From Vicinamibacteria bacterium (GTDB taxonomy: Bacteria > Acidobacteriota > Vicinamibacteria > Fen-336): a DNA stretch of 64,000 nt. Positions within the stretch are counted from its first letter, which is position 1. Each line of letters opens with the position of its first letter. Position numbers and translations under genes: made by a program. Positions 1,563 to 37,837 of the stretch are shown piece by piece. The notes under the pieces are model-generated. The model made no database searches. It saw only the letters and a program-made list of their open reading frames with translations, and was not told the origin of the DNA. Where the stretch lies: assembly GCA_050246895.1 (NCBI GenBank), contig JBFWVE010000006.1:251770-315769 (forward strand). The letters are read 5' to 3'.

Positions 1563-1678
1563 CTCTCCAACTCACTCTCGTGTCCGCCCACGCGCGGTCA
1601 GTTCCCGGCTGGAGCCGTGCTCGTGAACGGTTCCAGCCGGCACTCTTCATCTTCCCCCTGCGACCGATGACCCACCAC

Positions 1679-1993: not shown

Positions 1994-2051
1994 CGTCTGA
2001 ACCCCCCTGATGACAGAACCTGCCCACCATTGCCCCGGCGAACACGCTCGC

Positions 2052-3192: not shown

Positions 3193-3356
3193 CGCTCACA
3201 TCTCCTTCGGTTTCACAGTGTGTCGCAACGTGCCCGCCTAACACCGCGGAGGCTGCGAAACGACTCAATCAACGAAAATAGCCTCGCCGGCGCGCCACGG
3301 CCGGTCCCGTTTAAGAGATCCGCGCGTCGTCGCATTCATGCGCTTGTTCGGCCGCC

Positions 3357-3899
3357 TCAGGCCTCCGCTGCATCCTGGTCGACAACGAGTGTCGCAAGGA
3401 ACGCGGACAGCCGCCTCACATCGGCCGACTTGAGGTCCGTCGGCAACGACATGCGGGCGATTCGCCCTTCGCGCAGCGGGAACGGATACTCCACAAACCC
3501 CACCGTCGGAGGGAGCGTCGCCTTCTCGACCTCCTCCGCCGATTCGGCGCCCGGCCGACCCCGCTCGAGCTTCCCGTTCCGAGGTGGTCGTTCCTGGCCA
3601 CCGATCTTCCAGGACGAGGGGTCCTTGAGATAGCCCAGATACGAGGCATGGGCTTTGCGGAAGCGCCGTTCATACTCCTTAAGGCTATCGGGCTTGTACT
3701 CCCTCCCCTTGAGCGTCCGGAATCTCCTAAGGAGGCCATCCACGTCAACTGTGGAGATGTCCAACGCCTCCCAACCCTTCTCGATCTCGAGGACCTTGGT
3801 ACATGCGGCGCGAAGCGCGTTGGCCGTATTCGCGTTGAGGAGACCCTTCCCGGCGGCCCATTCCCAGTGTCCGACGAACTCTCTCCCCGTGCTGCCCAC
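3357..3899 (-). CDS. Hypothetical protein (181 aa) in the low-GC island
   Basis: The start is at GTG (Val62 of track ORF 3357..4082), preceded by AGGAG-7nt. The protein reads VGSTGREFVGHWEWAAGKGLLNANTANALRAACTKVLEIEKGW...KEYERRFRKAHASYLGYLKD.... No family was recognised. Confidence 0.5.
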   Translation of the reverse strand: MGSTGREFVGHWEWAAGKGLLNANTANALRAACTKVLEIEKGWEALDISTVDVDGLLRRFRTLKGREYKPDSLKEYERRFRKAHASYLGYLKDPSSWKIGGQERPPRNGKLERGRPGAESAEEVEKATLPPTVGFVEYPFPLREGRIARMSLPTDLKSADVRRLSAFLATLVVDQDAAEA

Positions 3900-3948
3900 G
3901 AAAGAACTCCTACGGAAGCGGGATGGCCCCTTGCCATCTCCAATCTGG

Positions 3949-3977
3949 AATATATGATATCTATATCGATCTGTCAA
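3949..3977 (-). promoter_or_regulatory. Near-consensus sigma70-type promoter (TTGACA-17-TATATT) in an AT-rich stretch
   Basis: On the minus strand, TTGACA (plus 3977-3972) is followed by 17 nt and then TATATT (plus 3954-3949). This is about 45 nt upstream of the GTG at 3899, and the local AT-rich block runs 3905-3985. Confidence 0.5.
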
Positions 3978-4112
3978 TGAACTACAGATGGCATATCGGC
4001 GGCGGCCCCGCACGACCTTCGCTGGGTGGGCCGGACACACGGATAAGCCAGGAACCCGCGATGCTCGCCGCGAGGCGAGCACGCGACGCCGCGGGCGATG
4101 CGAAGAGGTTCG

Positions 4113-4490
4113 TTAGTCTGTCTGGTTGTTGTGCGGGTCACTCGATGCTCCCAAGGCGAGCCTCAACGAGGGCGACGACCTCCGATAGGACTCGTGCGTC
4201 CGGAGCAATTGGAGGAGAGTGCGTTCCCAGAACAGAGTAGTGCTTGTCTCTAAGAGCCCCTGTTCAAGCGCGGCGGCACGATCACGGAAAGCACGGTGTT
4301 GCTCAAACAACTCTTGCCGCGACGCGCAGGTTCGCAGAAGGGCATTGCCTCTTGCCGTTGTGCGCAAGTTCAGGTGTAGTGCGATCCTCGAAAACGGGGA
4401 CGATGCCTTGGGGGACGAGCTGTCGCCTGTGCGCCCAATTGAGTGGGCCACCATGCGCGGCCCACATGGACGGCAGAGTCCGCAGAACAC
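4113..4490 (-). CDS. Hypothetical small protein with an N-terminal CxxCxxC (possible zinc finger)
   Basis: The protein reads MFCGLCRPCGPRMVAHSIGR.... Codon usage is low-GC (TTA, ACA, ACT). An alternative overlapping minus ORF at 4303..4599 makes the frame choice uncertain. Confidence 0.3.
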   Translation of the reverse strand: MFCGLCRPCGPRMVAHSIGRTGDSSSPKASSPFSRIALHLNLRTTARGNALLRTCASRQELFEQHRAFRDRAAALEQGLLETSTTLFWERTLLQLLRTHESYRRSSPSLRLALGASSDPHNNQTD

Positions 4491-4576
4491 CTCTGGATTG
4501 ACCTGCAGGGGGCGCCCAGTCTGTTGGCAGCAGATCTTGTCTGCTCCAATCCTCTGTTCGACGGTCGTGCGGAGGG

Positions 4577-5128
4577 CTAGGGTTGTTTGTGGTTCGCATC
4601 TCTGCTCATCGTCAGCTTGAGGATTTCGGAATCTAGCCGAGCGATCTCCCTATAGATCGCCGCCGCCTGGGGCCCAAACCCCGGGCGGTCGGATCTGTGG
4701 ACCTCCGAGACCATTCCGCTCTGCAGCTTCTCCAAAGCCATTTGCTTCTCTCGAATGAGTTTGTCAAGGGACTCATAGTGAGCCTTCTCACGAAGAAAGG
4801 CCTCCACCGTACCAAGCCATTTGTTGTCCGACTCGCCGTACGCCGCAGAAATAATGGCCAGCGCCTCACCACGTTTCTCTGAGTCCGGTTCCCTAACCCA
4901 TTCCAGAAGTAGCCTTGCCCGCTCGCGCGCGATGGTCTCCTTCGAGGCCTCCCGGTTTAGAGCGGACTCGGGTCGTTGAACAAGCCAAAAAACGAACGCC
5001 GCGCCAAGAACCGCCAGGAGGGCCTTGACCACCTCGACTCTCAGTTTGGCCTGTTCAAGCCGAAGGGCCGGGTCCACGACTGGCGGCGCAGGTCCCTCTC
5101 GTTTGTCGTCGGGCATTGCTGGTCTCAT
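4577..5128 (-). CDS. Membrane-anchored coiled-coil protein (single TM helix plus a long helical region)
   Basis: The protein reads MRPAMPDDKREGPAPPVV...LRVEVVKALLAVLGAAFVFWLVQRP (TM), then EASKETIARERARLLLEW...LDKLIREKQMALEKLQSG...IYREIARLDSEILKL. A GGAAGG RBS is present, with an alternative start at 5116. Codon usage is low-GC. Confidence 0.45.
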   Translation of the reverse strand: MRPAMPDDKREGPAPPVVDPALRLEQAKLRVEVVKALLAVLGAAFVFWLVQRPESALNREASKETIARERARLLLEWVREPDSEKRGEALAIISAAYGESDNKWLGTVEAFLREKAHYESLDKLIREKQMALEKLQSGMVSEVHRSDRPGFGPQAAAIYREIARLDSEILKLTMSRDANHKQP

Positions 5129-5267
5129 CTCCCTTCCGTCGAACAACGCCAGGCAGCTGACAAGATGATCCCGCTAGCACTGCAGTCAATAGTGCCAGCC
5201 GTGGACCGGCATGTGTCGGGGACTCTCCAGATTGGCCGAGATTAAGAGTTGAAGGAGTGTAGCGCCG

Positions 5268-5774
5268 TCAGCGGCGCGAGGGCGTGTCGAATTTATGCAT
5301 CAGGCCGACCAGCATCGAGACGATGCGGATCAGCAGCGATCGCCCGCGGCGGTGGTCGGCTGGGCTGATCAGGCCGCGGGCCAGCAGCAGGTCGAGCGCA
5401 GCGGCTGACTCCGTGGCCGACCCGCGGGCGATCGAGAAGAACTGGACTTTCTCCCCGGAAGACGAGCGGCCCGCACCCTCCGCCGTGTTCAGGCAAATGC
5501 TGACCGAGGCGCGGTCGAGCTGGTCGCGCAGGGCGCCGAGACCGCGGCCTCGACACAAGCGCGCGGCAAGCTGCTGGAACTCGAGCGAGACGCGATAGGC
5601 GTCGAGCCGGTCGTGCTCCAGCCAGGCGTCGGGCTGTGGCTCACGACCACGAGCCGGCAGCGGTTCACGACCGGGAACCGGCGACGGGCACGGGCGGGCT
5701 GGAGCAGCGGACGCACCGGCGGGAGCGGGGCCGGCTGCGGGATCGCCTGCGGGACTGGTGGAGCGATGGGCCAT
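5268..5774 (-). CDS. Four-helix-bundle protein (TIGR02436 / 23S rRNA IVS protein family, Avd-like fold)
   Basis: The sequence AYRVSLEFQQLAARL...LRDQLDRASVSICLNTAEGAGRSSSGEKVQFFSIARGSATESAAALDLLLARGLI matches the family signature. A ~50-aa Pro/Ala-rich N-terminal extension precedes it. A strong GGAGGTGA RBS sits before the ATG. Confidence 0.75.
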   Translation of the reverse strand: MAHRSTSPAGDPAAGPAPAGASAAPARPCPSPVPGREPLPARGREPQPDAWLEHDRLDAYRVSLEFQQLAARLCRGRGLGALRDQLDRASVSICLNTAEGAGRSSSGEKVQFFSIARGSATESAAALDLLLARGLISPADHRRGRSLLIRIVSMLVGLMHKFDTPSRR

Positions 5775-6004
5775 CTGTCACCTCCGTTCGGGCCGGCGAG
5801 GGCCGGCCTCTCGCGAAGTGGAGGCCGGCCCGAGCGGAACGAAGGTGACAGCAAGGCCAGCGACGCCCCGAGCAGGAGCCGCGCACGCGCCGTGACGCCG
5901 CGGCAGTTCAGGCGGTTCTGTCCGGCGGCGGGCCGCGGCGGCGCGCCGCGTGCAGCGCGGCCGTCAGGGCGTCCTCAGGCCGCCGCGCTCCCCCTTGGTC
6001 GTTG

Positions 6005-6146
6005 CCGTTCTCGTTGACGTTCACGTCTGTAGCCGCTCGCCCCGTTTCGTTCACGTTCACGTTGCCCGTTCCCCGTTCACGTCCGTAGCCACCCGCCGCC
6101 GTTCCGTTCATCGTTCACGTTCCCGTTTGCGTTCACGTCCGCAGCC
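6005..6146. repeat. Intergenic repeat cluster in the opposite (CGTTCAC) orientation: at least 3 copies of the CGTTCACGTC(C/T)G(T/C)AGCC core plus (ACGTTC)n
   Basis: The sequence here is gttgacgttcacgtctgtagccgc...ttcacgttcacgttgcc...cgttcacgtccgtagccacc...cgttcacgttcc...cgttcacgtccgcagccgg. Its reverse complement matches the 27706/28315/28967 elements (GGCTACGGACGTGAACG). Confidence 0.6.
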
Positions 6147-6192
6147 GGCCCGTCGCCCCCCGAACGAGGCTTAGAGTTGTCCCGCACGAAAG

Positions 6193-8243: not shown

Positions 8244-10117
8244 GCGGGGCGGCGCCCGGCCCGGTACAGGAACAGGCACACCGCCAGCGCCAGCCCGAGC
8301 GCCAGCAGCTCGCCGGGCACGCCGGAGACGCGGGGATCGATCGAGCGCGGCGCGAGCTTGGACGCCACCAGCGCGGCCACCAGCACGCCGGCGAGCCCCT
8401 CCCCCGCCACCAGGCCGGAGGCGGCCAGGATGCCGGGATCGGCCTCTGCCTCGCGCCTGGGGCCGTCCCCGCACAGCGCGCGTACGCAGCCGCCGACGTA
8501 GAGCGGCGCCATCGTCGCGAGCGGCAGGTAGACGCCGATCGCGAACGCGAGCCCGGAGACGCCGCACAGGATGGCGCCGATCGAGAGCCCGCCGCCGGTC
8601 AGCACCAGGCCCCAGGGCAAAGCGCCCGCCAGCACGCCCTCGATGATCGTCTTCATCAGGGTCGCCTGCGGCGCGGGGATCTCCTTCGAGCCGAAGCCGT
8701 AGGCGTCGCCCAGCAGCAGCAACGTGGCGGCCACCGCCCAGCAGGCGAACGCGGCGCCGATCAATTGGCCGAGCTGCTGGCGCGCCGGCGTCGCGCCCAC
8801 CAGCCAGCCGGTCTTGAGGTCCTGCGAGATGTCGCCCGACTTCGAGGCGGCGATCGCGACGATGGTGCCGACGGTGAGCACCGCCGCCCGCGCGCCGGGG
8901 TCGGTCCAGCCGGCCGCCGCGAAGACCGAGGCGACGCCCAGCAGCGTCACCAGCGTGATGCCCGAGGTCGGCTGCGTCGACACCCCGACGATGCCCACGA
9001 TGCGCGCGGCCACCGCGACGAACAGCAGCCCGAAGAAGCCGACGCCCGCGGCGCACACCGCGCGCTGCAGCGGGCTCATGTCGCCGGCGAAGATGCCGGG
9101 CACGATGCCGGCGGTCAGCACCACGAACAGGATGCCGCCGACCACGAAGCCGCCCGGCAGGTCGCGCTCGGTGGCCGGCAGGGGGCCGGTCGCGACGCCC
9201 GTGCCCGCGCGCATGCCGCGCGCGACGGCCGTGAAGGCGCCGAGCATCGTCGGCAGGCCGCGGGCCACCGTGATGATCCCGGCCACCGCCACGGCGCCGG
9301 CGCCGACGTAGCGGATGTAGCGAGCCCAGATCGCCGCGGTGTTCATCTCCGACACCAGCCTCTGCGTCTCGGGGAACAGCGGCGCCGTCAGCCCGGCGCC
9401 GGCCCAGGTGATCAGCGGGATGATCGCGAGCGCCGACACCAGGGCGCCCGCGACGCAGACGGCGGACTGCCGGTAGCCCAGGATGAAGCCCACGCCGAGG
9501 AGAGCCGGCGCCACCTCGAGCGCGAGCTGCGCGTTCGGCAGCACCGGCAGCGCCAGCGAGATCTCGTTCGGCACCAGGAACGCGAGCGAGATCAGCAGCT
9601 TCACCGCGGCGCCCACGGCCATCCCGCGGAAGATCCACTCGGAGCCCGTGGCGCCCGCCGTCGTCGCGCGCAGCACTTCGGCGCAGGCGGTGCCCTCGGG
9701 ATACGGCAGCTCGTCGCGGGCGTCGACGATCAGCAGCCGGCGCAGCGGGATCATGGCCGAGAGCCCGAGAACGCCGCCCAGGAAGCAGAGCGCCACGACC
9801 TGCAGATAGGGCGGGGCCATGCCCCACAGGAACAGCGCCGGCAGCGTGAAGATGGCGCCGGTGGCGAGCGAGGTCGAGGCCGAGCCGATCGTCTGCGAGA
9901 GGTTGGCCTCGAGGATGCTGCCCTTCGCGCCGAACATGCGGAAGAGGGCGACCGTCATCACCGCCGCCGGGATCGACGCCGACACCGTCATGCCGACGCG
10001 CAGGCCGAGGTAGGCGTTGGCGGCGCCGAACACGATGCCGAGCCCGACCCCCGTGACGACGGCCTTCAGCGTGAACTCGGCGAGGCCGAAGGCGCGCGGG
10101 GGGACGGCCGCGGTCAC
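8240..10117 (-). CDS. OPT-family oligopeptide transporter
   Basis: The 626-aa polytopic protein reads VTAAVPPRAFGLAEFTLKAVVTGVGLGIVFGAANAYLGLRVGMTVSASIPAAVM.... The GTG start overlaps the M28 stop (GTGA). Track ORF 8240..12007 is a read-through artifact. Confidence 0.85.
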   Translation of the reverse strand: MTAAVPPRAFGLAEFTLKAVVTGVGLGIVFGAANAYLGLRVGMTVSASIPAAVMTVALFRMFGAKGSILEANLSQTIGSASTSLATGAIFTLPALFLWGMAPPYLQVVALCFLGGVLGLSAMIPLRRLLIVDARDELPYPEGTACAEVLRATTAGATGSEWIFRGMAVGAAVKLLISLAFLVPNEISLALPVLPNAQLALEVAPALLGVGFILGYRQSAVCVAGALVSALAIIPLITWAGAGLTAPLFPETQRLVSEMNTAAIWARYIRYVGAGAVAVAGIITVARGLPTMLGAFTAVARGMRAGTGVATGPLPATERDLPGGFVVGGILFVVLTAGIVPGIFAGDMSPLQRAVCAAGVGFFGLLFVAVAARIVGIVGVSTQPTSGITLVTLLGVASVFAAAGWTDPGARAAVLTVGTIVAIAASKSGDISQDLKTGWLVGATPARQQLGQLIGAAFACWAVAATLLLLGDAYGFGSKEIPAPQATLMKTIIEGVLAGALPWGLVLTGGGLSIGAILCGVSGLAFAIGVYLPLATMAPLYVGGCVRALCGDGPRREAEADPGILAASGLVAGEGLAGVLVAALVASKLAPRSIDPRVSGVPGELLALGLALAVCLFLYRAGRRPA

Positions 10118-12216
10118 TTGCCGCTCTTGAGCGTGAGCGCGCCGGCCTTCTGCGCCCGCTCCAGCAGGTCGGCCACGTCGGCGGGCGCGACGCTGCCGTA
10201 GTACCAGTCGCCCGCCGAGAGCGCCTCGGCGGCCACGGCCTCGTAGACCTCCCAGGCGTTGCGGCGGCCGTCGCAGAAGTTGAGCGCCTCGAAGCGCATC
10301 ATCGAGTGCAGTTTCGGCGTCGCCCCGAGCTTCTCGAGCGCGTCGTACCAGGCGCCGGGGCTGGTCGCGGGGGCGTAGACCTTCTGCGCCATCGCCCGCT
10401 CCTCCTTCGACAGGTCGAGGTTCGGGGGGTTCTTGCCCGTCAGCGACGTGTAGGCCCGCTCGAGCGTGTCGAGATCGGTGGCGAGCTGGTCCTCCAGACG
10501 CTGGCTCGCCCAGCCGGCGGTCTCCACGGCGCGGCCCTTCGGCGACAACCGGCGCAGCGTCGCGAGCCGCGCCGTCTCCTTGCGGTGGCTCTGCAGCACC
10601 AGGTTGCGCGCGGCGCGGAAGGCCGCGTCGCGCCCGGCCGCGGCGGCGCCGCCGAGGTGCGCGACCGCCGTCGCCACGTCGGCCGCGACCCGCGCGCGCG
10701 CCCGGCCCGCCGAGTAGGCGGAGAGCGCCGCCGCCTGCTCGTCGCCCAGCGCCGCGAAGTAGCCGGCCACCGCCGCCACCACCACCGCGTTGCGCTCGAG
10801 CTGGGTGGCGTCGATGTTCTCGAGGTCGTCGCCCGTCGAGTGGATGAACTCGTCCGGCCAGTTGGTCAGCGAGGTGCCGGGCACGCCGATGAAGGACGGC
10901 GTGAAGTCGTGGTGGTCGGTCGAGTCGAAGTAGGGGACCATCCGCGCGTGATAGGGCTCGCGCGAGCCCTTCACCGCCGTGATCTCGGCGAGGAACGGCT
11001 GCGGCTGGCCGGTGCCGCGGTTGTTCAGGTACGACGTGTTGCCGTCGCGCACCGCGCCCAGCACGCTCTCCATCACGTCGTCGAGCACGTGCGGCAGGCT
11101 CCAGGGCAGCAGCGAGCCGTACTGCACGCGCCCGCCCCAGCTCTGGCGCGCGCCGACCATGTCCTGGTTGATGTTGAGCAGCAGCTTGCGCGGCTCCTGC
11201 GGGTTCTCGCGGAAGAACTGCTTCTGGCTCGACAGCTCGTTCAGCCACCAGAAGCGGATGTCGCGCCGCGGCCGCGGCAGGCGGCCGTCCTCGATCATCC
11301 GGCTGAGCGCGCGGCCGATCTCGAGCAGGTTGCCGCAGCCGCTGCCGTCGTCGTTGGCCGAGGTCATCTCCTCCTGGATGTGGGCGGTCAGCACGATCTG
11401 CTGGTCGTGGATCTCGCTGCCGCGGATCCAGCCCTCCACCATGGCCTGCTCCGCGCTCTGGAACGACGACTCGATGTCCACCTTCGCGCGCAGCGGCTTG
11501 CCCGCCGCCAGCACGCGCTTCTGCAGGGCGCGGCCCCGGCGCGGGGAGAGCATGACCGCGAAGGAGCCGGGCGTGCCGTCCTTGACGCCGGCGACGCCCT
11601 TGGCCTCGTAGCCGATGCGGCCCCAGGCGACCTGGTCGGGCGCGTCGAAGTCCTCGGGCCGGTTGGTCTGGTACGAGAGCACGCCGAGAGCGCCGCGCTT
11701 CCAGACGGCCTCGGCGTGCACCGTGCCCGCGGAGCCGCTCGCGAGCACGACCTTCCCCTTGACGTCCTTGCCCTGGTAGTCGGCCTCGCGCGTGCCGCTG
11801 CCCACGTCCACCAGCTCGGCCGTGACGTGGGCGCTGCGGCTCATGTCGGCGATCGAGACCGCGACCGCGCCGTAGTCGGCCAGCTTCTCGTCGGGGTCGA
11901 GCAGCCACGCCTCGCCCGAAGCGCACGACCACCCCTTGCCGTCCCACTTCTGCCGGATCAGCCTGACGTCCTCGAGGCCAGCCTCCTTCGCCGCCTTGGC
12001 GATCCACTCGGCGGCCGCGAAGAAGTCCTTGCTGCCGCCGGTGCGGTGGTAGTGCGACAGCCAGCGCACGTTCTCGTAGGCGCGGTCACCCGAGATCTCG
12101 CTGACGAGGGCGCGGCGCAAGTCCTCGGGCAGGAAAGGCGACGACTGGGCGAAGGCGGGGAGCGTCGCGGCGGCCAGCAGAGCTGCGGCCGGCAGTAGGG
12201 CGTTCTTCAAGGCCAC
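10114..12216 (-). CDS. M28-family peptidase with PA domain and signal peptide, paralog 1
   Basis: The protein has MALKNALLPAAALLAAATLPAFA (signal), AHIQEEMTSANDDGSGCGNLLEIGRAL and INQDMVG zinc-ligand motifs. It is coupled to the downstream OPT transporter. Confidence 0.8.
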   Translation of the reverse strand: MALKNALLPAAALLAAATLPAFAQSSPFLPEDLRRALVSEISGDRAYENVRWLSHYHRTGGSKDFFAAAEWIAKAAKEAGLEDVRLIRQKWDGKGWSCASGEAWLLDPDEKLADYGAVAVSIADMSRSAHVTAELVDVGSGTREADYQGKDVKGKVVLASGSAGTVHAEAVWKRGALGVLSYQTNRPEDFDAPDQVAWGRIGYEAKGVAGVKDGTPGSFAVMLSPRRGRALQKRVLAAGKPLRAKVDIESSFQSAEQAMVEGWIRGSEIHDQQIVLTAHIQEEMTSANDDGSGCGNLLEIGRALSRMIEDGRLPRPRRDIRFWWLNELSSQKQFFRENPQEPRKLLLNINQDMVGARQSWGGRVQYGSLLPWSLPHVLDDVMESVLGAVRDGNTSYLNNRGTGQPQPFLAEITAVKGSREPYHARMVPYFDSTDHHDFTPSFIGVPGTSLTNWPDEFIHSTGDDLENIDATQLERNAVVVAAVAGYFAALGDEQAAALSAYSAGRARARVAADVATAVAHLGGAAAAGRDAAFRAARNLVLQSHRKETARLATLRRLSPKGRAVETAGWASQRLEDQLATDLDTLERAYTSLTGKNPPNLDLSKEERAMAQKVYAPATSPGAWYDALEKLGATPKLHSMMRFEALNFCDGRRNAWEVYEAVAAEALSAGDWYYGSVAPADVADLLERAQKAGALTLKSGK

Positions 12217-24078: not shown

Positions 24079-26082
24079 ATGAAGCCCAGCACTGCAGCGT
24101 CGTGTCTGTCAGCTCTCGCCGCCCTGGCCGCGGAGGCTGGCGCCGAACGCCGCGTGCCGTTCTGGCCGGACGCCGTGCCCGCCGCCATCCAGGCCGAGGT
24201 CGACGGCCGCGCGGCGCTCGAGACGGTGCGCGCGCTCGGGCGCTTCCACCGCGTGCACGGCTCGCCCGGCTTCAGCGCGGCGGCCGAGCACGTGCGGGCG
24301 AGCGCCGAGGCCGCGGGCCTGCGCGAGGCGCGCGTCCTGCGCTTCCCCGCCGACGGCGAGACGCGCTACGCCCACTTCCGCAGCTACCTCGGGTGGACCG
24401 CGACGAGCGCCGTCCTCGAGGAGCCGGGCTCGCCCGCGCGCGTGCTGGCTCGCTTCCCGGAGTCGCCGGTGGCGCTCGCCGACTACTCGCAGGACGCCGA
24501 CGTGATGGCCGAGCTGGTGGACGTCGGCCGCGGCGTTTCCGCCTCCGACTACGAGGGCAAGGACGTGCGGGGCCGGCTGGTGCTGGCGAGCGGGCCGCTG
24601 CCCGCGGCGCACCAGGCCGCGTGCATCGAGCGGGGCGCGCTCGGCCTCCTTTCGGACTTTCCCAACCAGACGACCGCCTGGTCCGGCGACGACCGCGACC
24701 TGGTGCGCTGGGGCCATCTGTCCCCCTACGAGACCCGCAACCGCTTCGCCTTCATGCTGTCGAAGCGCCAGGCCGACGCCCTGCGCGCGCGGCTCGCGCG
24801 GGGCGAGACGCTGATGCTGCGCGCCCGGGTCGCCGCGCGCATGCGCCCGGCGAGCTTCGAGGTGGTGAGCGCCCTGATCCCCGGCAGCGACGCGAAGGCC
24901 GGCGAGATCGTGCTCACCGCGCACCTCTGTCACCAGTCCGCCGGCGCCAACGACAACGCCTCGGGCAGCGCCGCCATCCTCGAGGTCGCGCGCGCGCTGC
25001 AGGCGGCGATCGAGCGCGGCGCGCTGCCGGCTCCCCGCCGCGGCATCCGCTTCCTCTGGCTGCCCGAGATCGCCGGCGCCCAGGCCTGGCTGGTGCGCCA
25101 TCCCGAGCTGGCGTCGCGCCTGGTGGCCGGCATCCACATGGACATGGTCGGCGGCCTGCTGTCGACCACGCGCGGCACCTTCCATCTGTCGCGCTCCGCC
25201 GAGTCGCTGCCCCACGTGGTGAACGACGTGGCGGGCGCGTTCTTCGAGGAGGTCGTCGCGGCCTCCGCGGCGCACGCCGAGCACGGCGGCGACCCCGGCG
25301 CCGGCTTCGTCTGGCCGCCGGGCTCGCGCGAGGTCTTCCTCGGCGACCTGCGCGCGCTCGAGCTGGGCAGCGACCACCAGGTCTTCCAGGCCGCCCCCTT
25401 CGGCGTGCCGATGGTCTACTTCCACGACTGGCCGGACGTCAGCATCCACACCAACAAGGACCTGCCGGAGAACCTGGATGCGACCAAGCTCGGGCGCGTC
25501 GCGTACATGGGCGCGGGCATCGCCTGGACGCTCGCCGCCCTGCCCGACGCCGAGGCGCCGAGGCTGCTGGCGCTCGCGCGGGCCGGCGCCGAGCAGCGGC
25601 TCGTCCGCGCGCGCCTGCGCGGCGAGCTCTCGGCCGACGCGCGAGACGGCGCGCTCTTCGTGCGCGAGGCCGCGCTGACCGGCGCCGCGGCGCTGCGCTC
25701 CACGGGCGCTTTGTGGCCGTCCGTGGCGGCCGCGGCGGAGGACCAGGCGCGGCGCCTCGAGCACCAGGCCGGCACGCCCGCGGCGCCCGCGCAGGAGGAT
25801 CGGCGCGTGCCGGCGCGCAGCCCCGAGATCAAGGGCCCACTTTCGGTCTACTACTACGACCACTTGGCCGCGACGCTGCCCACGGGCTCGGGCGCCGACA
25901 CGGCGCCCGAGGGCGAGCAGGACGAGCGGCTCGCATACGAGCTGCTGAACCTGGTCGACGGCCGCCGCAGCGTCGGCGAGATCCGCGACGTGCTGTCGGG
26001 GCGCTACGCGCCGGTGACGCTCGCCGCGGTCCAGCGCGAGCTCGAGCGGCTGGCGCGCGCGCGCGTGGTGAGCTTCCGGTGA
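24079..26082 (+). CDS. M28-family peptidase with PA domain, paralog 2
   Basis: HLCHQSAGANDNASGSAAILEVARAL and HMDMVGG match the M28 zinc-ligand motifs. It has the same architecture as 10114..12216. A GAAAGGA RBS precedes the start. Confidence 0.8.
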   Translation: MKPSTAASCLSALAALAAEAGAERRVPFWPDAVPAAIQAEVDGRAALETVRALGRFHRVHGSPGFSAAAEHVRASAEAAGLREARVLRFPADGETRYAHFRSYLGWTATSAVLEEPGSPARVLARFPESPVALADYSQDADVMAELVDVGRGVSASDYEGKDVRGRLVLASGPLPAAHQAACIERGALGLLSDFPNQTTAWSGDDRDLVRWGHLSPYETRNRFAFMLSKRQADALRARLARGETLMLRARVAARMRPASFEVVSALIPGSDAKAGEIVLTAHLCHQSAGANDNASGSAAILEVARALQAAIERGALPAPRRGIRFLWLPEIAGAQAWLVRHPELASRLVAGIHMDMVGGLLSTTRGTFHLSRSAESLPHVVNDVAGAFFEEVVAASAAHAEHGGDPGAGFVWPPGSREVFLGDLRALELGSDHQVFQAAPFGVPMVYFHDWPDVSIHTNKDLPENLDATKLGRVAYMGAGIAWTLAALPDAEAPRLLALARAGAEQRLVRARLRGELSADARDGALFVREAALTGAAALRSTGALWPSVAAAAEDQARRLEHQAGTPAAPAQEDRRVPARSPEIKGPLSVYYYDHLAATLPTGSGADTAPEGEQDERLAYELLNLVDGRRSVGEIRDVLSGRYAPVTLAAVQRELERLARARVVSFR

Positions 26083-27704
26083 CGAGCGAGCGCCCGACCG
26101 CGACCCCGGCGGCAGGCGCGCTCGTCCGCATCCTGCTCGCCTGCCCCCATTGCGGGGCTCCCTTCAGCGTCGACGACGAGACGCGCAGCGTCCTGTGCGA
26201 GCACTGCGCCTCGCGCCTGCTGCTCGAGGCGCCGGAGCGCGAGGAGATCTACGTCGTCGACGGGCAGGTCGAGCGGCCCGCGGACCTGCTCGAGATCCTG
26301 GTCGAGTACCGCGTGCAGGCGCAGCGCGCCGAGATCATCCACCGCAACCGCGACTCCGAGGGCAACCCGCCGTCCGAGCTGCTGATCGAGCGGGAGCTGC
26401 GCGCCTACGAGACGAAGCTGCGCCAGCAGGCGCGCCTCATCGCCACGCGGCCGCTGCACGTCCCCTACTGGCACCTGACGGGCGCCATCGTGCAGGGTCT
26501 GCTGGCGCGCCGGAAGGACGCCAAGCTGACGCACGTGCGGGCCTTCGCGCTGGAGCACACCGTGCCCGGCTACTCGACGCTGAAGGCCAACCTGCGGGAC
26601 AAGGGGCTGCGCATGGACCGCGCGCTGGCGCGGCCGCTCTCGTCGGCGCTGGTGAAGGAGCGCGGCTCGTTCCTGCCCTGGGTGGAGCTGCCGGAGCAGC
26701 AGTCGCGCGAGATCGACAAGTGGCTGCAGCGCGACCTCGACCCCGACGTCGAGCCGATGTTCAAGCACGGCGAGCTGCTCTACGCGCGGCGGCTGCTGAT
26801 CTACCGGCCCTACTGGCTGGCGAAGGCAATCACCGACAAGGGGCAGGAGTGGCTGCTCTTCGACGGCTGCTTCCGCACGATCGCCGGCTACCCGACCGAG
26901 CCCGAAGCGCGCGCGCTCGGGGCGCTGCGGGACCCCGATCCGCTGCGCGCGGCGAGCGCGCCCTATCGGCGGGTCCGCGTCGTGCCTTCGCGCTGTCCCG
27001 ATTGCGGCGCCGAGTCGCGCTTCGAGCCGACGGCCGTCGTCAGCGTGTGCCCGAACTGCAACCTGGGCCTCGAGCTGACGCCCGCGGGCGCCCGCGTCGT
27101 TCCCTACGACCACGGCGCCGGCGGCGAGCTCGACGCCGACTACCTCCCGTTCTGGCGCTACGAGATCGAGGCGCGCTTCCCCGACGGCAAGCGCGCGGGC
27201 GCGCTGCAGGAGTACGTGCGCGCGCTGCTGCCGCAGGCGACGCCCGGCTTCGCCGTGAAGGGGCCCCATCTCTACCTGCCCGCCGCGCGCCTGCTGGGGA
27301 CGGCGCCGGGCGACGCCGTCTGGAAGGCGCTCGTCGAGTGGGTCCACGCCGAGCCGCCCGGGATCGTGCCCGGCAAGATCCCGCTCGGCGGCCGCGCGCG
27401 GCCCTGGCCCGTGAGCGTGACGGAGGAGGACGCGCGAGCGACGGCGCGCTTCGCCCTGTTCGGCCTGTTCACGAGGGCCGCCGCGGCCCGCCTGAACGCG
27501 ATCGCGGCCCGGCGCGCGCTGAAGGAGGTCGAGCTCGAGGTCCGGCAGCCGCGGCTGGTGATGCTGCCCTTCGTTCGCACGGGAGAGGAGCTGCAGGCAC
27601 GCGAGGGCGGGCCGCGGGTGGCGACGTTCCTGCTGCGCCGCAGCCCCGAGCTGAGCCAGATGAGGGCGACGGTGCAAGGAGCCTTCGCGGGGGCGGCGCG
27701 CTAG
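26079..27704 (+). CDS. Hypothetical protein with two zinc-ribbon-like CxxC...CxxC motifs, each heading a ~230-aa domain (internal duplication); translationally coupled to the M28 peptidase
   Basis: The GTG start overlaps the M28 stop (GTGA). The two halves begin CPHCGAPFSVDDETRSVLCEHC and CPDCGAESRFEPTAVVSVCPNCN. Later repeated motifs include HVPYWHLTGAI versus YLPFWRYEIEA. Confidence 0.6.
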   Translation: MTSERPTATPAAGALVRILLACPHCGAPFSVDDETRSVLCEHCASRLLLEAPEREEIYVVDGQVERPADLLEILVEYRVQAQRAEIIHRNRDSEGNPPSELLIERELRAYETKLRQQARLIATRPLHVPYWHLTGAIVQGLLARRKDAKLTHVRAFALEHTVPGYSTLKANLRDKGLRMDRALARPLSSALVKERGSFLPWVELPEQQSREIDKWLQRDLDPDVEPMFKHGELLYARRLLIYRPYWLAKAITDKGQEWLLFDGCFRTIAGYPTEPEARALGALRDPDPLRAASAPYRRVRVVPSRCPDCGAESRFEPTAVVSVCPNCNLGLELTPAGARVVPYDHGAGGELDADYLPFWRYEIEARFPDGKRAGALQEYVRALLPQATPGFAVKGPHLYLPAARLLGTAPGDAVWKALVEWVHAEPPGIVPGKIPLGGRARPWPVSVTEEDARATARFALFGLFTRAAAARLNAIAARRALKEVELEVRQPRLVMLPFVRTGEELQAREGGPRVATFLLRRSPELSQMRATVQGAFAGAAR

Positions 27705-27705
27705 G

Positions 27706-27775
27706 ACGGCACGGAGGCAGTCGGCTACGGACGTGAACGGGAACCGGGAACGGCAACGTGAACGAAAGGTGGACC
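27706..27775. repeat. Repeat-family copy (GTGAACG orientation)
   Basis: The sequence is gacggcacggaggcagTCGGCTACGGACGTGAACGGGAACcgggaacggcaacgtgaacg, directly after the stop of 26079..27704. Confidence 0.55.
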
Positions 27776-27810
27776 CAGGGCAGCAGCGTGGATCATGGAG
27801 TTCTGCGGCG

Positions 27811-28050
27811 GTGGACCGTGACTTCGAGCTCGTCGGGGAGATCCTGGAGATCGAGTCGATCGCGGCGGGTCGGGCCGTTCGGGACCGGCAGCGGCTCATC
27901 CGTTTGTACGGGAAGGGTCGTTGGCGCAAGATGAAGGGCATTGCTCGGATCCGTCTGCGTCTTGGAGGGGTCCGGTTGGCGGAACTGCACTGGTATGAAG
28001 CGCACGGCATCGGCCGGAAAGAGCTCAAAGCGAAGCGGTACCTCGACTAG
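27811..28050 (+). CDS. Small hypothetical protein (about 80 aa, start uncertain: GTG 27769 or 27811)
   Basis: The protein reads VDRDFELVGEILEIESIAAGRAVRDRQRLIRLYGKGRWRKMKGIARIRLRLGGVRLAELHWYEAHGIGRKELKAKRYLD, with mixed GC3 codon usage. The annotated 5' end of the track ORF lies inside the repeat and is likely spurious. Confidence 0.4.
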   Translation: MDRDFELVGEILEIESIAAGRAVRDRQRLIRLYGKGRWRKMKGIARIRLRLGGVRLAELHWYEAHGIGRKELKAKRYLD

Positions 28051-28078
28051 GCGCCCCAAGGGCCCCGAGAGGAGGTTC

Positions 28079-28282
28079 GTGGTCTGCGTCCGGAACTCGG
28101 GCTATGAAGCCTCGCTCGAGCAGAACAAGATCTACCTCGTGCTTCCCGACTTGGATGCAGAGCGGCACCAGCAGCTCCGCGTGGTCGACGAGAGCGGCGA
28201 GGATTATCTCTTCTCTGCTGACCGCTTCGTCGCGATCGACGTGCCAGCCGCCGTTCGCGACTCGCTCCTCAAGGCGTCTTAG
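28079..28282 (+). CDS. Small hypothetical protein (67 aa)
   Basis: [13 protein letters not shown] precedes the GTG start. The protein reads VVCVRNSGYEASLEQNKIYLVLPDLDAERHQQLRVVDESGEDYLFSADRFVAIDVPAAVRDSLLKAS. It lies 29 bp after the previous small gene, making a possible two-gene module. Confidence 0.45.
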   Translation: MVCVRNSGYEASLEQNKIYLVLPDLDAERHQQLRVVDESGEDYLFSADRFVAIDVPAAVRDSLLKAS

Positions 28283-28314
28283 TCCCCCGGGCCGGCGGTC
28301 AGTCGTCGGCGGAC

Positions 28315-28408
28315 GACGGCGGCGGTCGGCTACGGACGTGAACGTGAACGAGCAACGTGCACGTGAACGTCGGGAGGCGGCCTAACGGACGTGAACGGGA
28401 ACGTCAAC
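28315..28408. repeat. Repeat-family copy A, about 94 bp and identical to copy B
   Basis: The sequence is gacggcggcggtcggctacggacgtgaacgtgaacgagcaacgtgcacgtgaacgtcgggaggcggcctaacggacgtgaacgggaacgtcaac. It is preceded by the hairpin GTCGTCggcgGACGAC. Confidence 0.7.
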
Positions 28409-28423
28409 GACAACGAGGGCGGG

Positions 28424-28993
28424 ATGCCGCCCACGGTGCAGCTGGCGGGCGCGCGCCTGCGCGGGCTCCGGCCGGAGGACGCCGCGGCGTGGTACCACTA
28501 CTTGAGCGATCCTGTGGTGACCGAGCTGACGAGCTATCCGACGCTGACGTTCGCGGCGGTCGAGTCGATGGTCGAGCACTACCGCGAGGGCTACACGGCA
28601 GGCACGTCGTGCAAATGGGCGATCGCCGCCGGGCCCGACGACACGCTCGTCGGGACCTGTGGGTTCAACGAGTGGTCGCGGAGCCAAGGCTGGGCCGAGC
28701 TGGCCTACGAGCTGGCCGCTTCCCACTGGGGCCGTGGGCTCGCCACGGAAGCTGTTGGGGCCTGCCTGGCCTGGGCGTTCGAGCAGCCCCGGTTCAACCG
28801 GGTTCACGCGTTCGTGATGGTCGGCAACGTCCGCTCCGAGCGCGTTCTGCAACGTGCCCGTTTCACCCGAGAGGGTTGCCTCAGGTCGTACCGCACGTGC
28901 CGAGGACTGCCGCGGGACTTCTGGGTGTTCAGCCTTCTTCGCCCCGAATGGGAGAGTATGGACAACGACGGCGGCGGTCGGCTACGGACGTGA
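28424..28993 (+). CDS. GNAT-family N-acetyltransferase (RimJ/RimL-like)
   Basis: From Met12 of the track ORF: MPPTVQLAGARLRGLRPEDAAAWYHY.... The acetyl-CoA binding region is GTCGFNEWSRSQGWAELAYELAASHWGRGLATEAV. The last nine codons and the stop lie inside repeat copy B. Confidence 0.85.
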   Translation: MPPTVQLAGARLRGLRPEDAAAWYHYLSDPVVTELTSYPTLTFAAVESMVEHYREGYTAGTSCKWAIAAGPDDTLVGTCGFNEWSRSQGWAELAYELAASHWGRGLATEAVGACLAWAFEQPRFNRVHAFVMVGNVRSERVLQRARFTREGCLRSYRTCRGLPRDFWVFSLLRPEWESMDNDGGGRLRT

Positions 28994-29060
28994 ACGTGAA
29001 CGAGCAACGTGCACGTGAACGTCGGGAGGCGGCCTAACGGACGTGAACGGGAACGTCAAC
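28967..29060. repeat. Repeat-family copy B, a perfect direct repeat of copy A lying 652 bp downstream
   Basis: It is the same ~94-bp string as 28315-28408, with stop codons in all six frames. Confidence 0.7.
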
Positions 29061-29276
29061 CTGAACGACGAACGTGACGAACGGCCAGGTGAAGGTGGGG
29101 AGGATTCAGAGGCTCCCTTCGAGCTGCGTGAGATCGACGACGAGGCCGAGGGGGAACCACCGCGCGGCGAGGGGCTCGGCGCCGCCGGCCAGTTGATCGC
29201 GGCGCTGGGTATCTCTGCGGTACTGGGTCTCCTGATCGTCGGCGCACTCGCGGTGCTTTCATGGCTGTTCGCGTGA
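29043..29276 (+). CDS. Possible small membrane protein (acidic N-terminus, one C-terminal TM helix)
   Basis: The protein reads ...EAPFELREIDDEAEGEPPRGEGLGAAGQLIAALGISAVLGLLIVGALAVLSWLFA. The only in-frame start is the GTG inside the repeat, so support is weak. Confidence 0.25.
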   Translation: MNGNVNLNDERDERPGEGGEDSEAPFELREIDDEAEGEPPRGEGLGAAGQLIAALGISAVLGLLIVGALAVLSWLFA

Positions 29277-29311
29277 CTTGGCGCCGTACGTTCCGGAAGG
29301 CCTGAGCGGCC

Positions 29312-29668
29312 GTGCTCCTCCTGGTTCTCGGGTGTGTCGTGGCGCTCCAGGCGTGGGTGTGGCGCGATCTGTCCACCCGCGTCGAGTGCGGCGGGCTCAG
29401 CAAGATGGGCGCGGTGATCCGCTACGCCCTCTGGGCCCTGATGCCCCCGCTTCTCTTCGTCGTGGCCTTCCTGGTGGGCGTGGGGCTCGAGGAGTGGCTC
29501 GACGTGGCGCTGATCCCAGAGCTGCTGGGGCGGGCGGCGCTTCCCGTGGGAGTGTTTCTCGTTGGCTCTGCCGGGCTTGGCTCAATATGCTTCGGGGTCA
29601 GGTCGGTCTGGCTGGAGGCGCCGGCGGGACGGAGCCGACGTGAACGTGAACGAGGAACGTCCGGGTGA
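29312..29668 (+). CDS. Small integral membrane protein (3 predicted TM helices)
   Basis: The protein is VLLLVLGCVVALQAWVW...AVIRYALWALMPPLLFVVAFLVGVGL...LPVGVFLVGSAGLGSICF. The start is GTG, and the stop falls inside the next repeat copy. Confidence 0.45.
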   Translation: MLLLVLGCVVALQAWVWRDLSTRVECGGLSKMGAVIRYALWALMPPLLFVVAFLVGVGLEEWLDVALIPELLGRAALPVGVFLVGSAGLGSICFGVRSVWLEAPAGRSRRERERGTSG

Positions 29669-29675
29669 ACCGACT
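29636..29675. repeat. Short repeat-family copy
   Basis: The sequence is cgacgtgaacgtgaacgaggaacgtccgggtgaacc. Confidence 0.5.
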
Positions 29676-29710
29676 TCGGCTCGATCTCGACGCGGAACCG
29701 GAGAGTGCTC

Positions 29711-30400
29711 ATGCGCCATCGCGAAAGACACCGGACCGGCCGCGTTGGCTGGTTGCGCGCGGCGGTGCTGGGGGCGAACGACGGCATCGTGTCGACGGCG
29801 AGCCTCCTGGTCGGCGTTGCGGCGGCCGGGGCGACCAGCCACGACGTCGTGGTGGCGGGGGTCGCAGGGCTGGTCGCGGGGGCCATGTCCATGGCCGCGG
29901 GTGAATACGTCTCGGTCAGCTCCCAGGCAGACAGCGAGCGGGCCGACATCGAGCGCGAGCGCGGGGAGCTTGCGACGAACGAAGAGCACGAGCGGGAGGA
30001 GCTGGCGGCGATCTACGTCCAGCGCGGTCTGGATCCTCCGCTCGCGCAACAGGTCTCCGCGCAGCTCATGGCCCACGACGCGCTGGGCGCCCATGCTCGC
30101 GACGAGCTGGGCATCTCCGACACGCTCAGCGCGCGGCCCGTACAGGCGGCGCTGGCCTCCGCCGGTTCGTTCGCCGTGGGCGCGGCACTGCCGCTCCTGA
30201 CGGCTGTCGTCGCCGCCGGCGTCCCCGTCATCCCAGTCATCGCCGGAACCGCGCTGGTATTCCTCGCGCTCCTAGGCGGCTTGGCCGCGGTCGCCGGCGG
30301 TGCGAACGCCGTGGAGGGGGCTGTGCGCGTGACGTTCTGGGGTGCGCTTGCCATGGCGCTGACCGCGGGCGTCGGCGCCGTGTTCGCGACGGTCGTGTAG
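29711..30400 (+). CDS. VIT1/CCC1-family (vacuolar iron transporter-like) membrane protein
   Basis: From Met3 of the track ORF: MRHRERHRTGRVGWLRAAVLGANDGIVSTASLLVGVAAAG is the PF01988 signature. Hydrophobic C-terminal helices follow. A GGAGAG RBS precedes the start. Confidence 0.85.
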   Translation: MRHRERHRTGRVGWLRAAVLGANDGIVSTASLLVGVAAAGATSHDVVVAGVAGLVAGAMSMAAGEYVSVSSQADSERADIERERGELATNEEHEREELAAIYVQRGLDPPLAQQVSAQLMAHDALGAHARDELGISDTLSARPVQAALASAGSFAVGAALPLLTAVVAAGVPVIPVIAGTALVFLALLGGLAAVAGGANAVEGAVRVTFWGALAMALTAGVGAVFATVV

Positions 30401-30526
30401 GTTCGTTCGTTCACGTTCACGTGCGTCGTTCACGTTCACGTCCGTCCGAGCCGGGGAGCCTCAGGTCGACGGGAAGGCCACGGGCGTGAACGTCAACGAC
30501 CAACGTGAACGTGAAAGGCGGGCGGA
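30401..30526. repeat. Palindromic repeat-family copy: left arm (CGTTCAC)x4, ~37-bp spacer, right arm (GTGAACG)x3
   Basis: The left arm is gttcgttcgttcacgttcacgtgcgtcgttcacgttcacgtccg and the right arm is gggcgtgaacgtcaacgaccaacgtgaacgtgaaagg. The arms form an imperfect ~35-bp inverted repeat. Confidence 0.6.
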
Positions 30527-30534
30527 GGCGACGG

Positions 30535-30912
30535 GTGGTTGCGCTCGAGGCGTTCGAGGTGAAGGACGGGTACGCCGTCTTCAGGCCCGCTGGGCCGACG
30601 ACGGTCGAGCAGCTCCTGGTGATGCTCGAGCAGGCGATGAAGGCTTGCCAGGACGCGGGCGTGGCGAGACTCCTCGTGAACGTCTCGCGACTGAGACACC
30701 CGGACCTGACGACCAGCGACCGGTTTCACCTGGGCGACCGGATGGCGGCCTTCTGGGATCGGAGGATCCGGCTGGCAGTCGTTCCCAGGGAGGATCAGAT
30801 CGACCCCGAGCGGTTTGGCGCCTTCGTCGCGCAGAATCGCGGGTTGCGCGTAGGCCCCCACGCCGACGAAGCCGCGGCGTTGAGCTGGCTGATGTCGGAT
30901 TCGGAGCGCTGA
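30535..30912 (+). CDS. Hypothetical protein (125 aa), possibly STAS/anti-sigma-antagonist-like
   Basis: GGAGG lies 6 nt before the GTG start. The protein reads VVALEAFEVKDGYAVFRPAGPTTVEQLLVMLEQAMKACQDAGVARLLVNVSRLRHPDLTTSDRFHLGDRMAAFWDRRIRLAVVP.... The fold assignment is tentative. Confidence 0.45.
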   Translation: MVALEAFEVKDGYAVFRPAGPTTVEQLLVMLEQAMKACQDAGVARLLVNVSRLRHPDLTTSDRFHLGDRMAAFWDRRIRLAVVPREDQIDPERFGAFVAQNRGLRVGPHADEAAALSWLMSDSER

Positions 30913-30934
30913 GCTGCCTCCAGGCCAACCCTTC

Positions 30935-31075
30935 CACACGTTCACGTTCACGTGCGCCGTTTCACGTTCACGTCCGTCCAGGCCCGCGGGCCAACGGACG
31001 TACGGACGTACGGGCTGACGGGTCGGTGATACGGACGTGAACGTGAACGTCAACGAGAGCGTCAACGTGAATGCT
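30935..31075. repeat. Palindromic repeat-family copy: CGTTCAC arm, spacer with GGACGTAC x2, GTGAACG arm
   Basis: The sequence is cacgttcacgttcacgtgcgccgtttcacgttcacgtccgtcc...ccaacggacgtacggacgtacggg...gatacggacgtgaacgtgaacgtcaacgagagcgtcaacgtgaatg. Confidence 0.6.
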
Positions 31076-31105
31076 ACGGCCGGGCTGGGGTACATTCGGC
31101 TTCCA

Positions 31106-31957
31106 ATGCTCGAGGATTTCCACCTCCACACGCTGATCAGCGATGGGGAGCTGACGCCCACCGTGCTGCTCGCGCACGCGGCACGGCACGGGGTGCGGCG
31201 GGCCGCGATCACCGACCACGACAGCCTGGGGGCCTACCGCTGGGAGGAGGGCGCCGTCTTCAGCGAGGCGCGCCGGCTCGGGGTGGAGCTGACGGTGGGC
31301 ATCGAGATGGACGCCGACTGGGACGGCGTCGAGGTGCACGTGCTCGGGCTCGACGTGTCGCTCGACGACGGGCGGCTCAACCACCACCTCACGCGCGTGC
31401 GTGAGACGCGGCGCGAACGGGCCCGCCGCGAGATCGACGTCGTCTGCGGCCTGCTGGGCGCGGGCGCCGTGCGCGAAGCTGACGTCTTCGTGCCGGGCCG
31501 CGAGACCCTGATGAAGCCGCACTTCATCCGCCCGCTGCTCGCGCGCGGGTTCTTCGCGAGCTACGAGCTGGCCAACGCGTGGTACCACGCGAACGTGAAG
31601 ACCGGGATCGAGGTGCCGCGGCCGGACGTGGGCGAGGCGGTGCGGATCATCCACGAGGCCGGCGGCTGGGCATCGCTGGCGCACGCGGGCTACTACGAGC
31701 GCGACGGCCTCGCGGGAGTGCTGGAGCGGCTGCCCGATCTCGTGGCCGAGGGGCTCGACGCGGTGGAGCTCGAGTACCCCTACCACGCCTGCTCGCCGCA
31801 TCTGTTCGGGCTGGAGGACGAGCGCCGCTTCCTGGCGGCGCTGCGGGCGGCGGCGGCGTCCCTCGGACTGCGCTTCACCCGCGGCAGCGACGCGCACGCC
31901 GCGACCGACTTCGAGCGCAGCTATGGCGCCGGGTTCGCCAGCGTGTCCGCCCGCTGA
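31106..31957 (+). CDS. PHP-domain metal-dependent phosphoesterase (TrpH/YciV RNase AM-like)
   Basis: From Met24 of the track ORF: MLEDFHLHTLISDGELTP...AAITDHDSLGAY...KPHFIRPLLARGF...RGSDAHAA, the PHP His/Asp motifs. Confidence 0.8.
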   Translation: MLEDFHLHTLISDGELTPTVLLAHAARHGVRRAAITDHDSLGAYRWEEGAVFSEARRLGVELTVGIEMDADWDGVEVHVLGLDVSLDDGRLNHHLTRVRETRRERARREIDVVCGLLGAGAVREADVFVPGRETLMKPHFIRPLLARGFFASYELANAWYHANVKTGIEVPRPDVGEAVRIIHEAGGWASLAHAGYYERDGLAGVLERLPDLVAEGLDAVELEYPYHACSPHLFGLEDERRFLAALRAAAASLGLRFTRGSDAHAATDFERSYGAGFASVSAR

Positions 31958-37783: not shown

Positions 37784-37837
37784 CCGAGGCCCGACGACAT
37801 CCGCCGCACGCGAGCGTAGAGTCTCTTCAGCATCGCT

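Follow-up and report, generated by a model that had tools for sequence, protein, structure and literature searches.

An exact 96-bp direct repeat around a GNAT gene in a repeat-delimited accessory-gene array of a Vicinamibacteria bacterium

To our knowledge, few systems beyond integrons and the dif modules of Acinetobacter hold ORF-sized accessory genes in arrays that can be shuffled. REP, BIME and REPIN elements are substrates for rearrangements. Integron cassette arrays and CALINs, the latter being clusters of attC sites without an integrase, are compact runs of short, tightly packed accessory ORFs on one strand, with structured repeats that start at or overlap stop codons and with an order and content that vary between close relatives (PMC4889954). 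Elements of the REP/BIME/REPIN-RAYT group are short, lineage-specific extragenic repeats that occur as singlets and in tandem clusters. A REP is an imperfect palindrome of ~20-35 nt with a GTAG-type head, a REPIN is an inverted doublet with a spacer that makes a hairpin of ~110 nt, and occasional identical copies imply recent replication (PMC3116915, PMC3337134). Mobile insertion cassettes and MITE-flanked modules are transposase-free passengers held between inverted repeat copies (PMC3913671, PMC4133298). The dif (pdif) modules of Acinetobacter plasmids, served by XerC/XerD, are small modules between inverted sites whose order varies in related replicons and whose recombinase is encoded elsewhere (PMC6449649, PMC13141974). 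Here, an uncultured acidobacterial lineage presents a shuffleable array built on a different, hexamer-periodic repeat, in which the relocation of a module is seen by comparing relatives.

The array spans 3.4 kb and consists of seven accessory genes of low GC3, all on the same strand, between core genes of a Vicinamibacteria MAG. It lies in a 64-kb window, the whole stretch of DNA that was analysed. Its elements follow one another as a 541-aa gene, a forward repeat unit, a 79-aa + 67-aa gene pair, the repeat R, a GNAT gene, R again, a 77-aa gene, a 109-aa gene, a forward unit, a VIT1 gene, a junction element J, a 125-aa gene, a second J and a PHP gene. GC3 is 0.73-0.87 in the seven array genes and 0.935-0.965 in the M28 peptidase, 541-aa, PHP, NMT1 and DctM genes; standing below the flanking core genes in this respect, the array is compositionally foreign.

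The left array edge is a forward unit (27705-27776, plus strand) directly after the stop of the 541-aa gene, and this unit travels with the 79-aa + 67-aa pair (27811-28282, plus strand). The pair is a cassette that occupies another place in the array in two related contigs (L156, 2152-2634; L166, 144-615). It matches no Pfam or NCBIfam family, and only its layout is reminiscent of a toxin-antitoxin pair. Relatives of the 79-aa protein form a very large, highly conserved family of small proteins, with at least 7,987 database clusters at E<=1e-8 and top matches 72-84% identical; its gene always has the 67-aa partner after it here, and the pair moves as a unit. Downstream of the second R lie the 77-aa and 109-aa genes for small membrane proteins (29043-29668, plus strand), and the 109-aa ORF stops inside the next forward unit (29612-29690, plus strand). 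That unit precedes the gene of a VIT1/CCC1-family transporter, a cassette with a GC3 of 0.87 (29711-30400, plus strand). The first J (30400-30520), the 125-aa gene, again a cassette (30535-30912, plus strand), and the second J (30935-31075), which forms the right array edge, complete the array; the core PHP gene (31106-31957) lies beyond. Forward units stand directly 5' of six ORFs or ORF groups, namely the 79-aa + 67-aa pair, the GNAT, 77-aa, VIT1, 125-aa and PHP genes, at distances to the start of ~15 to 35 nt; the 109-aa gene has no forward unit 5' of it.

Upstream, the array adjoins the genes of an M28 peptidase and of a 541-aa zinc-ribbon protein. The latter (26079-27704, GC3 0.965) has two zinc ribbons, no other recognisable domain and no PDB or NCBIfam relative, and its gene has a 4-nt overlap with the DUF4910/M28 peptidase gene at the stop of the latter. 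We considered this protein as a recombinase and set the idea aside on its matches, which are to zinc ribbons only, its overlap with the peptidase gene and its core-like GC3. Between ~3.3 kb left of the window and position 38993, the called genes include no recombinase, transposase or integrase, and none is found in ten long ORFs of 41-64 kb.

Self-comparison of the window shows that positions 28313-28408 (R1) and 28965-29060 (R2), both on the plus strand, are identical in the same direction at 96/96 bp. The copies are spaced 652 bp start to start and are separated by a segment of 556 bp. They form by a wide margin the longest exact repeat of the window, the runners-up measuring 20-22 bp and belonging mostly to the same family as R. 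Each copy is composed of two family units in tandem, which in R1 are a forward unit a (core at 28332) and a unit b (core at 28385). At the left ends the identity breaks off sharply and the flanks are unrelated; at the right ends only a hexamer-phase similarity persists, with 5/8 of the next bases matching. An AC dinucleotide is present on both sides of both copies, and there is no other flanking duplication at R. The preliminary description, which proposed aligning the copies and their outer flanks to place these junctions, gave a perfect direct repeat of 94 bp; the exact identity holds, and the true length is two bases more on the left. It also counted the last nine codons and the stop of the GNAT gene inside the second copy. 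This overlap is real, and comprises the stop and the 8 sense codons before it.

All three forward frames of R contain stop codons, followed by GGGAGG and, 14 nt downstream near its 3' end, a GTG. R1 ends 15 nt before the GNAT ATG. R2 gives the GNAT gene its stop codon and holds GTG 29043, which is the sole in-frame start of the 77-aa ORF and has GGGAGG before it. In the deposited annotation, the GNAT protein (200 aa) starts at GTG 28391 in R1 and the 77-aa protein at GTG 29043, and both begin with MNGNVN.

The gene between the copies (28424-28993, plus strand, stop at 28991-28993) encodes a GNAT N-acetyltransferase of the RimJ/RimL type, 189 aa long. It matches PF13302 (Acetyltransf_3) as a full-length domain, with an E-value of 2.7e-29 over profile positions 3-138 of 138. 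The ORF is intact and reads through both repeat junctions. As judged from the sequence, ATG 28424 is the more likely start, rather than GTG 28391: it is preferred for its own GAGGG Shine-Dalgarno site in the 15-nt leader and for its agreement with the N-termini of homologues. An alignment with 14 homologues gives 63-74% identity and 68 invariant columns. The nearest non-self homologues are 75-76% identical or lower and lie in unrelated contexts without family units. The C-terminal tails of homologues are unlike the tail encoded by R, and one homologue ends in ...SMDNG*; together these suggest that the native GNAT sequence continues right up to the R2 junction. Two tails beyond R2 were tried. 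Removal of 96 nt gives ...MDTERRT*, and removal of 94 nt joins the GNAT gene in frame with the 77-aa ORF, where 'RDERPG' bears a weak likeness to homologue tails that we judged coincidental.

The closest GNAT homologue on a long contig (L115; GCA_040960625.1, JBFOMW010000296.1, 1-14000) sits in another array of small same-strand genes, among them VapB/PIN, SnoaL, DUF4180 and FGE-sulfatase genes. The separators there belong to unrelated families, a palindrome of ~92 nt (GGGCTTCAATTTTCA...) and a repeat of ~67 nt ending in GTTAG/GTTAC. The ~67-nt repeat is attC-like by eye, and was negative in the strict RYYYAAC/GTTRRRY test.

A family unit consists of a GC-rich leader (e.g. GGCGGTCGGCT), a near-invariant core ACGGACGTGAACG and a tail of GNNAAC hexamers, (GNNAAC)n. 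The string ACGTGAACG occurs 35 times in the window, with 0.43 occurrences expected. Against R, other members of the family are 61-83% identical, so the identical R1 and R2 do form, as the preliminary description put it, a perfect pair in an otherwise divergent family. Within the window the family makes up three clusters plus one degenerate solitary unit. The latter (60220-60291, minus strand; GAGGACGTGAACGGCAAGGAACGATGAAC) is intergenic, with a DAO oxidoreductase gene on one side and the next gene of the minus strand on the other, and may represent a family copy that has decayed amid core genes. The junction element J is built from a reverse unit, a spacer of 31-53 nt and a forward unit, which together make a hairpin of ~110-140 nt. 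The first J has a spacer of 34 nt and a hairpin z of -4.9, and is orthologous to a junction of L156; the second has a spacer of 53 nt and a z of -5.1. Unit a of R folds weakly, with a z of -3.0 on one strand and -0.8 on the other. Read on the reverse strand, the family unit is ...GTTCACGTCC-GTAG-CC..., with no adjoining short palindrome evident.

The repeat family is lineage-specific. Its units match nothing in Rfam, a blastn search of plasmid sequences gave no match for the repeat, viral contigs gave chance matches only, and a literature search on the motif returned nothing relevant. A scan of a genome collection with ACGGACGTGAACGNGAAC gave, among the matches listed, single chance occurrences in unrelated taxa. 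A metagenome scan with a 19-mer returned 31 loci, chiefly chance matches in coding sequence; the family-like ones are L123, L143 and L122. The L143 and L122 contigs carry pairs of forward and reverse units without cargo. In L123 (Ga0124853_1058113, GC 0.68), family clusters at 332-443 and 1431-1502, ~1 kb apart, flank an apparently degraded coding sequence; two unit clusters on this contig place the family in at least one further population. A scan for promoters and terminators found no promoter-like or terminator-like sites at the units. The idea that the units reflect avoidance of ACGT as a restriction site was dropped, ACGT being not under-represented outside the elements (O/E 1.16).

A second island in the window is bounded by the same family. 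A cluster of family units at 787-890 (plus strand) abuts the stop of a PIN gene, and three tandem units at 5981-6164 (minus strand) stand in the opposite orientation; the hexamer tails of these inverted clusters point inward. Between them, the island (787-6164) comprises 5.3 kb with a GC of 61-65%, against ~73% elsewhere, and seven minus-strand genes. Its cargo includes a PIN toxin, a Hypoth_Ymh + DUF5343 pair, two unknown proteins and a 23S_rRNA_IVP four-helix protein. A 79-aa gene without family match adjoins the PIN toxin in the antitoxin position. In the distant relative L164, NfeD and Band_7, which are flanking genes of this island in the window, lie instead near the PHP gene.

The window sequence is found in contig JBFXAP010000005.1 of the Vicinamibacteria MAG GCA_050184175.1, where window base 1 is contig base 232,038. 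Nine consecutive proteins of the locus are the same in two NCBI MAG contigs, of 324,400 and 374,555 bp. The runs SRR27751815 and SRR27751816 yield three Logan contigs (k=31) that match the window at 100% identity. Two of them (L153 and L154) end at 28342, 30 nt into R1, and the third (L155) starts at 29031, 30 nt before the end of R2. Breaks at 30 nt inside each outer repeat edge imply a true repeat with two different flanks per side; these contigs confirm the repeat edges and leave the order of the pieces unset, so that a circle, an amplification or a mixed population would also fit them.

The array differs in order and content between close relatives. The JGI metagenome contig L156 and the window share 91-92% identity from PHP to MacB. 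In L156 the order is the end of an esterase gene, two J elements, a 63-aa gene, VIT1, J, a 124-aa gene, J, the 79-aa + 67-aa pair, two reverse units and PHP. The 63-aa gene is a homologue of the 77-aa gene of the window. The cassettes of the two contigs are only 76-85% identical. The 79-aa + 67-aa pair, 85% identical between them, lies at the opposite array end in L156, directly before PHP, and the homology runs from the forward unit through ~9 nt (TAG and a short C-run) past the stop. Of the L156 array, 2.8 kb are covered, the contig starting 525 nt before the 63-aa gene; this part has neither the GNAT gene nor the 109-aa gene, and the unit that follows the 109-aa gene is likewise missing. 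The Logan contigs L166 and L167, from two further runs, have the L156 arrangement. In a more distant relative, with a PHP protein 66% identical, neither array nor units occur upstream of PHP.

Array breakpoints between the window and its relatives fall beside family units, and cassette boundaries keep no fixed offset from the unit core. In L156, direct copies of a ~65-nt unit, 94% identical, stand on either side of the relocated pair; this bracket of unit, module and unit has the R-GNAT-R topology and is the older of the two. Two junctions without cargo, J1 and J2, also lie in tandem in L156 and are 94-95% identical by our reading of both sequences. Unit a of R2 aligns with the unit before the 63-aa homologue. 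Neighbouring units are more alike within one genome than to units of the other genome, window against L156, which hints at concerted evolution. Away from the array, L156 has an extra 638-aa amidohydrolase gene (9515-11408, against 37784-37795 of the window) on the opposite strand, between genes for a MacB-like protein and a TonB-type receptor; it is missing in the window, and no family units are seen there.

The perfect pair is the trace of a very recent recombination, whose products are still identical. We read R-GNAT-R as the youngest rearrangement in a hypervariable accessory array delimited by a lineage-specific repeat family, and give this reading a probability of about 0.5. In such an event, the GNAT gene with one R copy would integrate beside a resident R by Campbell-type recombination through the unit, either RecA-dependent or by a recombinase encoded outside the window, and would leave one identical unit on each side of the gene. 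By the reverse reaction, R1 x R2, the GNAT gene would be lost as a 652-bp circle and a single R restored before the 77-aa gene. We infer that the gene came in rather than that R was copied; the enzyme and the reversibility of the reaction are likewise proposals. The reading draws on the exact 96-bp pair set against 61-83% in other family pairs, the enrichment of ACGTGAACG, the foreign GC3, the relocated 79-aa + 67-aa pair, the L156 bracket, the GNAT homologues that lie elsewhere without units, and the distant relative without an array upstream of PHP. Against integration, a Campbell-type event yields identical flanks only where the incoming unit already matched the resident one exactly, and cassette boundaries at varying offsets from the core argue against a clean site-specific crossover point. 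No donor of the GNAT cassette was found, the best non-self match being 75-76% identical. The preliminary description had proposed a recent cassette insertion or duplication, by site-specific or homologous recombination. A recent event is borne out, and the neighbouring genes do act as cassettes, while the data accommodate insertion as well as copying, and homologous as well as site-specific exchange. Its authors had also considered that the repeat might be an assembly artifact, or that the GNAT gene with both copies might be conserved in relatives. The repeat is present in independent assemblies, and the arrangement is not conserved in L156, L166 or L164.

The identity ends at the unit end and the left flanks are unrelated, so whole-unit breakpoints fit better than a conversion tract; such breakpoints equally allow the copying of R itself. 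R may then be a small non-autonomous mobile element, MITE- or REPIN-like, that was recently copied over 556 bp, most likely to the position just upstream of the GNAT start, with the GNAT gene as a pre-existing bystander. Cargo-less tandem units, such as J1/J2 of L156 and the three at 5981-6164, indicate that units can duplicate alone, and thereby leave substantial weight with this rival, as do the cargo-less forward and reverse pairs of L143 and L122; the alignment of R2 unit a with the unit before the L156 63-aa homologue further agrees with R2 being the older copy. The AC on either side of both copies could be taken for a 2-bp target duplication, but it is also what a hexamer ending in AAC leaves, and thus carries no weight. 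R is moreover a two-unit composite, unlike the single unit or the hairpin junction found elsewhere, no transposase or RAYT is seen in the annotated parts of the window, and the copying of R leaves the relocation of the 79-aa + 67-aa pair unexplained. We regard such mobility of R as possible, if doubtful. If instead two older, diverged units that flanked the GNAT gene had been homogenised by gene conversion, no gene need have moved, and the closeness of the sites (652 bp) and the likeness of neighbouring units within a genome would both fit. A conversion tract should, however, leave mismatches at its outer ends, whereas all 96/96 positions are identical, starting with the first base of the leader and ending with the last hexamer, and other unit pairs, which share no more than 20 identical bases in a row, would be poor substrates; we hold this to be improbable.

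An effect of assembly, by which near-identical copies were collapsed, or the path through the chromosome took in a 652-bp circle or a tandem amplification a single time, is suggested by the MAG source, by a de Bruijn loop of repeat, unique segment and repeat that fits several molecule structures, and by the Logan contigs with their unset order. It is very improbable given that two MAG contigs of different length have the same nine proteins in the same order, that the graph breaks exactly at both repeat edges in two runs, that read pairs readily bridge a unique segment of only 556 bp, and that the GNAT ORF is intact across both junctions. The units could also be primarily intercistronic expression elements, serving as mRNA hairpins or stabilisers or as translation insulators, with recombination as a side effect. 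R does provide three-frame stops, GGGAGG and a GTG that gene callers use for the GNAT and 77-aa starts, and forward units stand directly 5' of the six array ORFs or ORF groups. The junction hairpins, with z about -5, point the same way, but the complementarity of their arms follows automatically from inverted copies of the motif, so that they are not independent evidence. With neither promoter-like nor terminator-like sites nor an Rfam family at the units, and with cassette reshuffling and the perfect duplication unexplained, an expression role as the primary one appears unlikely to us.

More speculatively, and with the odds rather against it, the ACGGACGTGAACG/(GNNAAC)n units could be the recombination sites of an undescribed, integron-independent cassette system of this Vicinamibacteria lineage. 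Its enzyme, a recombinase or transposase with a gene elsewhere in the genome, would take up ORF-sized modules, copy them and change their order; R-GNAT-R would be freshly integrated, and the units would also supply stops and starts. If a dedicated enzyme exists, the array would represent a new cassette platform; without one, it would be a clean natural case in which REP-like repeats drive the gain, loss and reordering of genes. We would expect the GNAT gene to be unstable, so that some members of the population carry it and others lack it.

Compared with integrons and CALINs, the array shares the tight packing of short accessory ORFs in one orientation, the structured repeats at or over stop codons, and a cassette order and content that vary between close relatives. 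Its cargo, a GNAT protein and small unannotated toxin-antitoxin-like proteins, is also of the kind found there, and as in a CALIN there is no adjacent integrase. From what the sequence offers, it nevertheless looks not to be an integron. The attC core pair, R'' RYYYAAC and R' GTTRRRY of an imperfect hairpin, 45-160 nt from one another, has no instance in 27600-31200 and none in any intergenic element; by the strict core patterns, four RYYYAAC and one GTTRRRY occur in 27600-31200, and the units were accordingly rejected as attC sites. Their arms, GTTCAC...GTGAAC, are of opposite polarity to those of attC. The units are hexamer-periodic, often single or in tandem direct copies, and their breakpoints lie at no one core position. 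For IntI and attI beside the array, no integrase domain was found in the genes called between ~3.3 kb left of the window and 38993, nor in the ten long ORFs of 41-64 kb.

With the REP, BIME and REPIN group, the family has in common its short, lineage-specific extragenic copies, as singlets and tandem clusters, and an occasional identical pair. The inverted doublet with spacer is present at 30400-30520, at 30935-31075 and at the equivalent L156 junctions. A single unit does not appear, however, to be a short palindrome of the canonical REP layout, and the units differ from REPs and REPINs in their unusual hexamer tails and in bracketing gene modules of foreign composition. REP families characteristically have tens to hundreds of extragenic copies and a single-copy RAYT (Y1 transposase, PF01797) flanked by them; in the annotated parts of the window and its short flanks, no RAYT was seen. 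As in mobile insertion cassettes, inverted units bracket the island 787-6164, the VIT1 module, the 125-aa module and three modules of L156, whereas the GNAT, 79-aa + 67-aa and 77-aa/109-aa modules have forward units only. The terminal units here are 45-70 nt long with internal hexamer repeats. No cognate IS with matching terminal repeats was found in the window or related loci, and target-site duplications at module ends are nowhere consistent or convincing, the R copies showing the AC dinucleotide only.

The comparison with dif modules extends to the small modules between inverted sites, to their changing order and to the recombinase encoded elsewhere, as proposed for the array. By eye, the junction sequences contain no 28-bp XerC-6-XerD site, in which two 11-bp arms enclose an AT-rich centre of 6 bp, and are GC-rich throughout. 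Sites of the dif type alternate in orientation and serve both adjacent modules, whereas neighbouring modules of the array share no single site, each junction having two cores 31-53 nt apart, and the array is chromosomal and belongs to the Acidobacteriota. By analogy with these systems, the array would work like an integron/CALIN or a set of dif modules, its single elements appear REPIN- or MITE-like, and its modules between inverted units seem to resemble mobile insertion cassettes.
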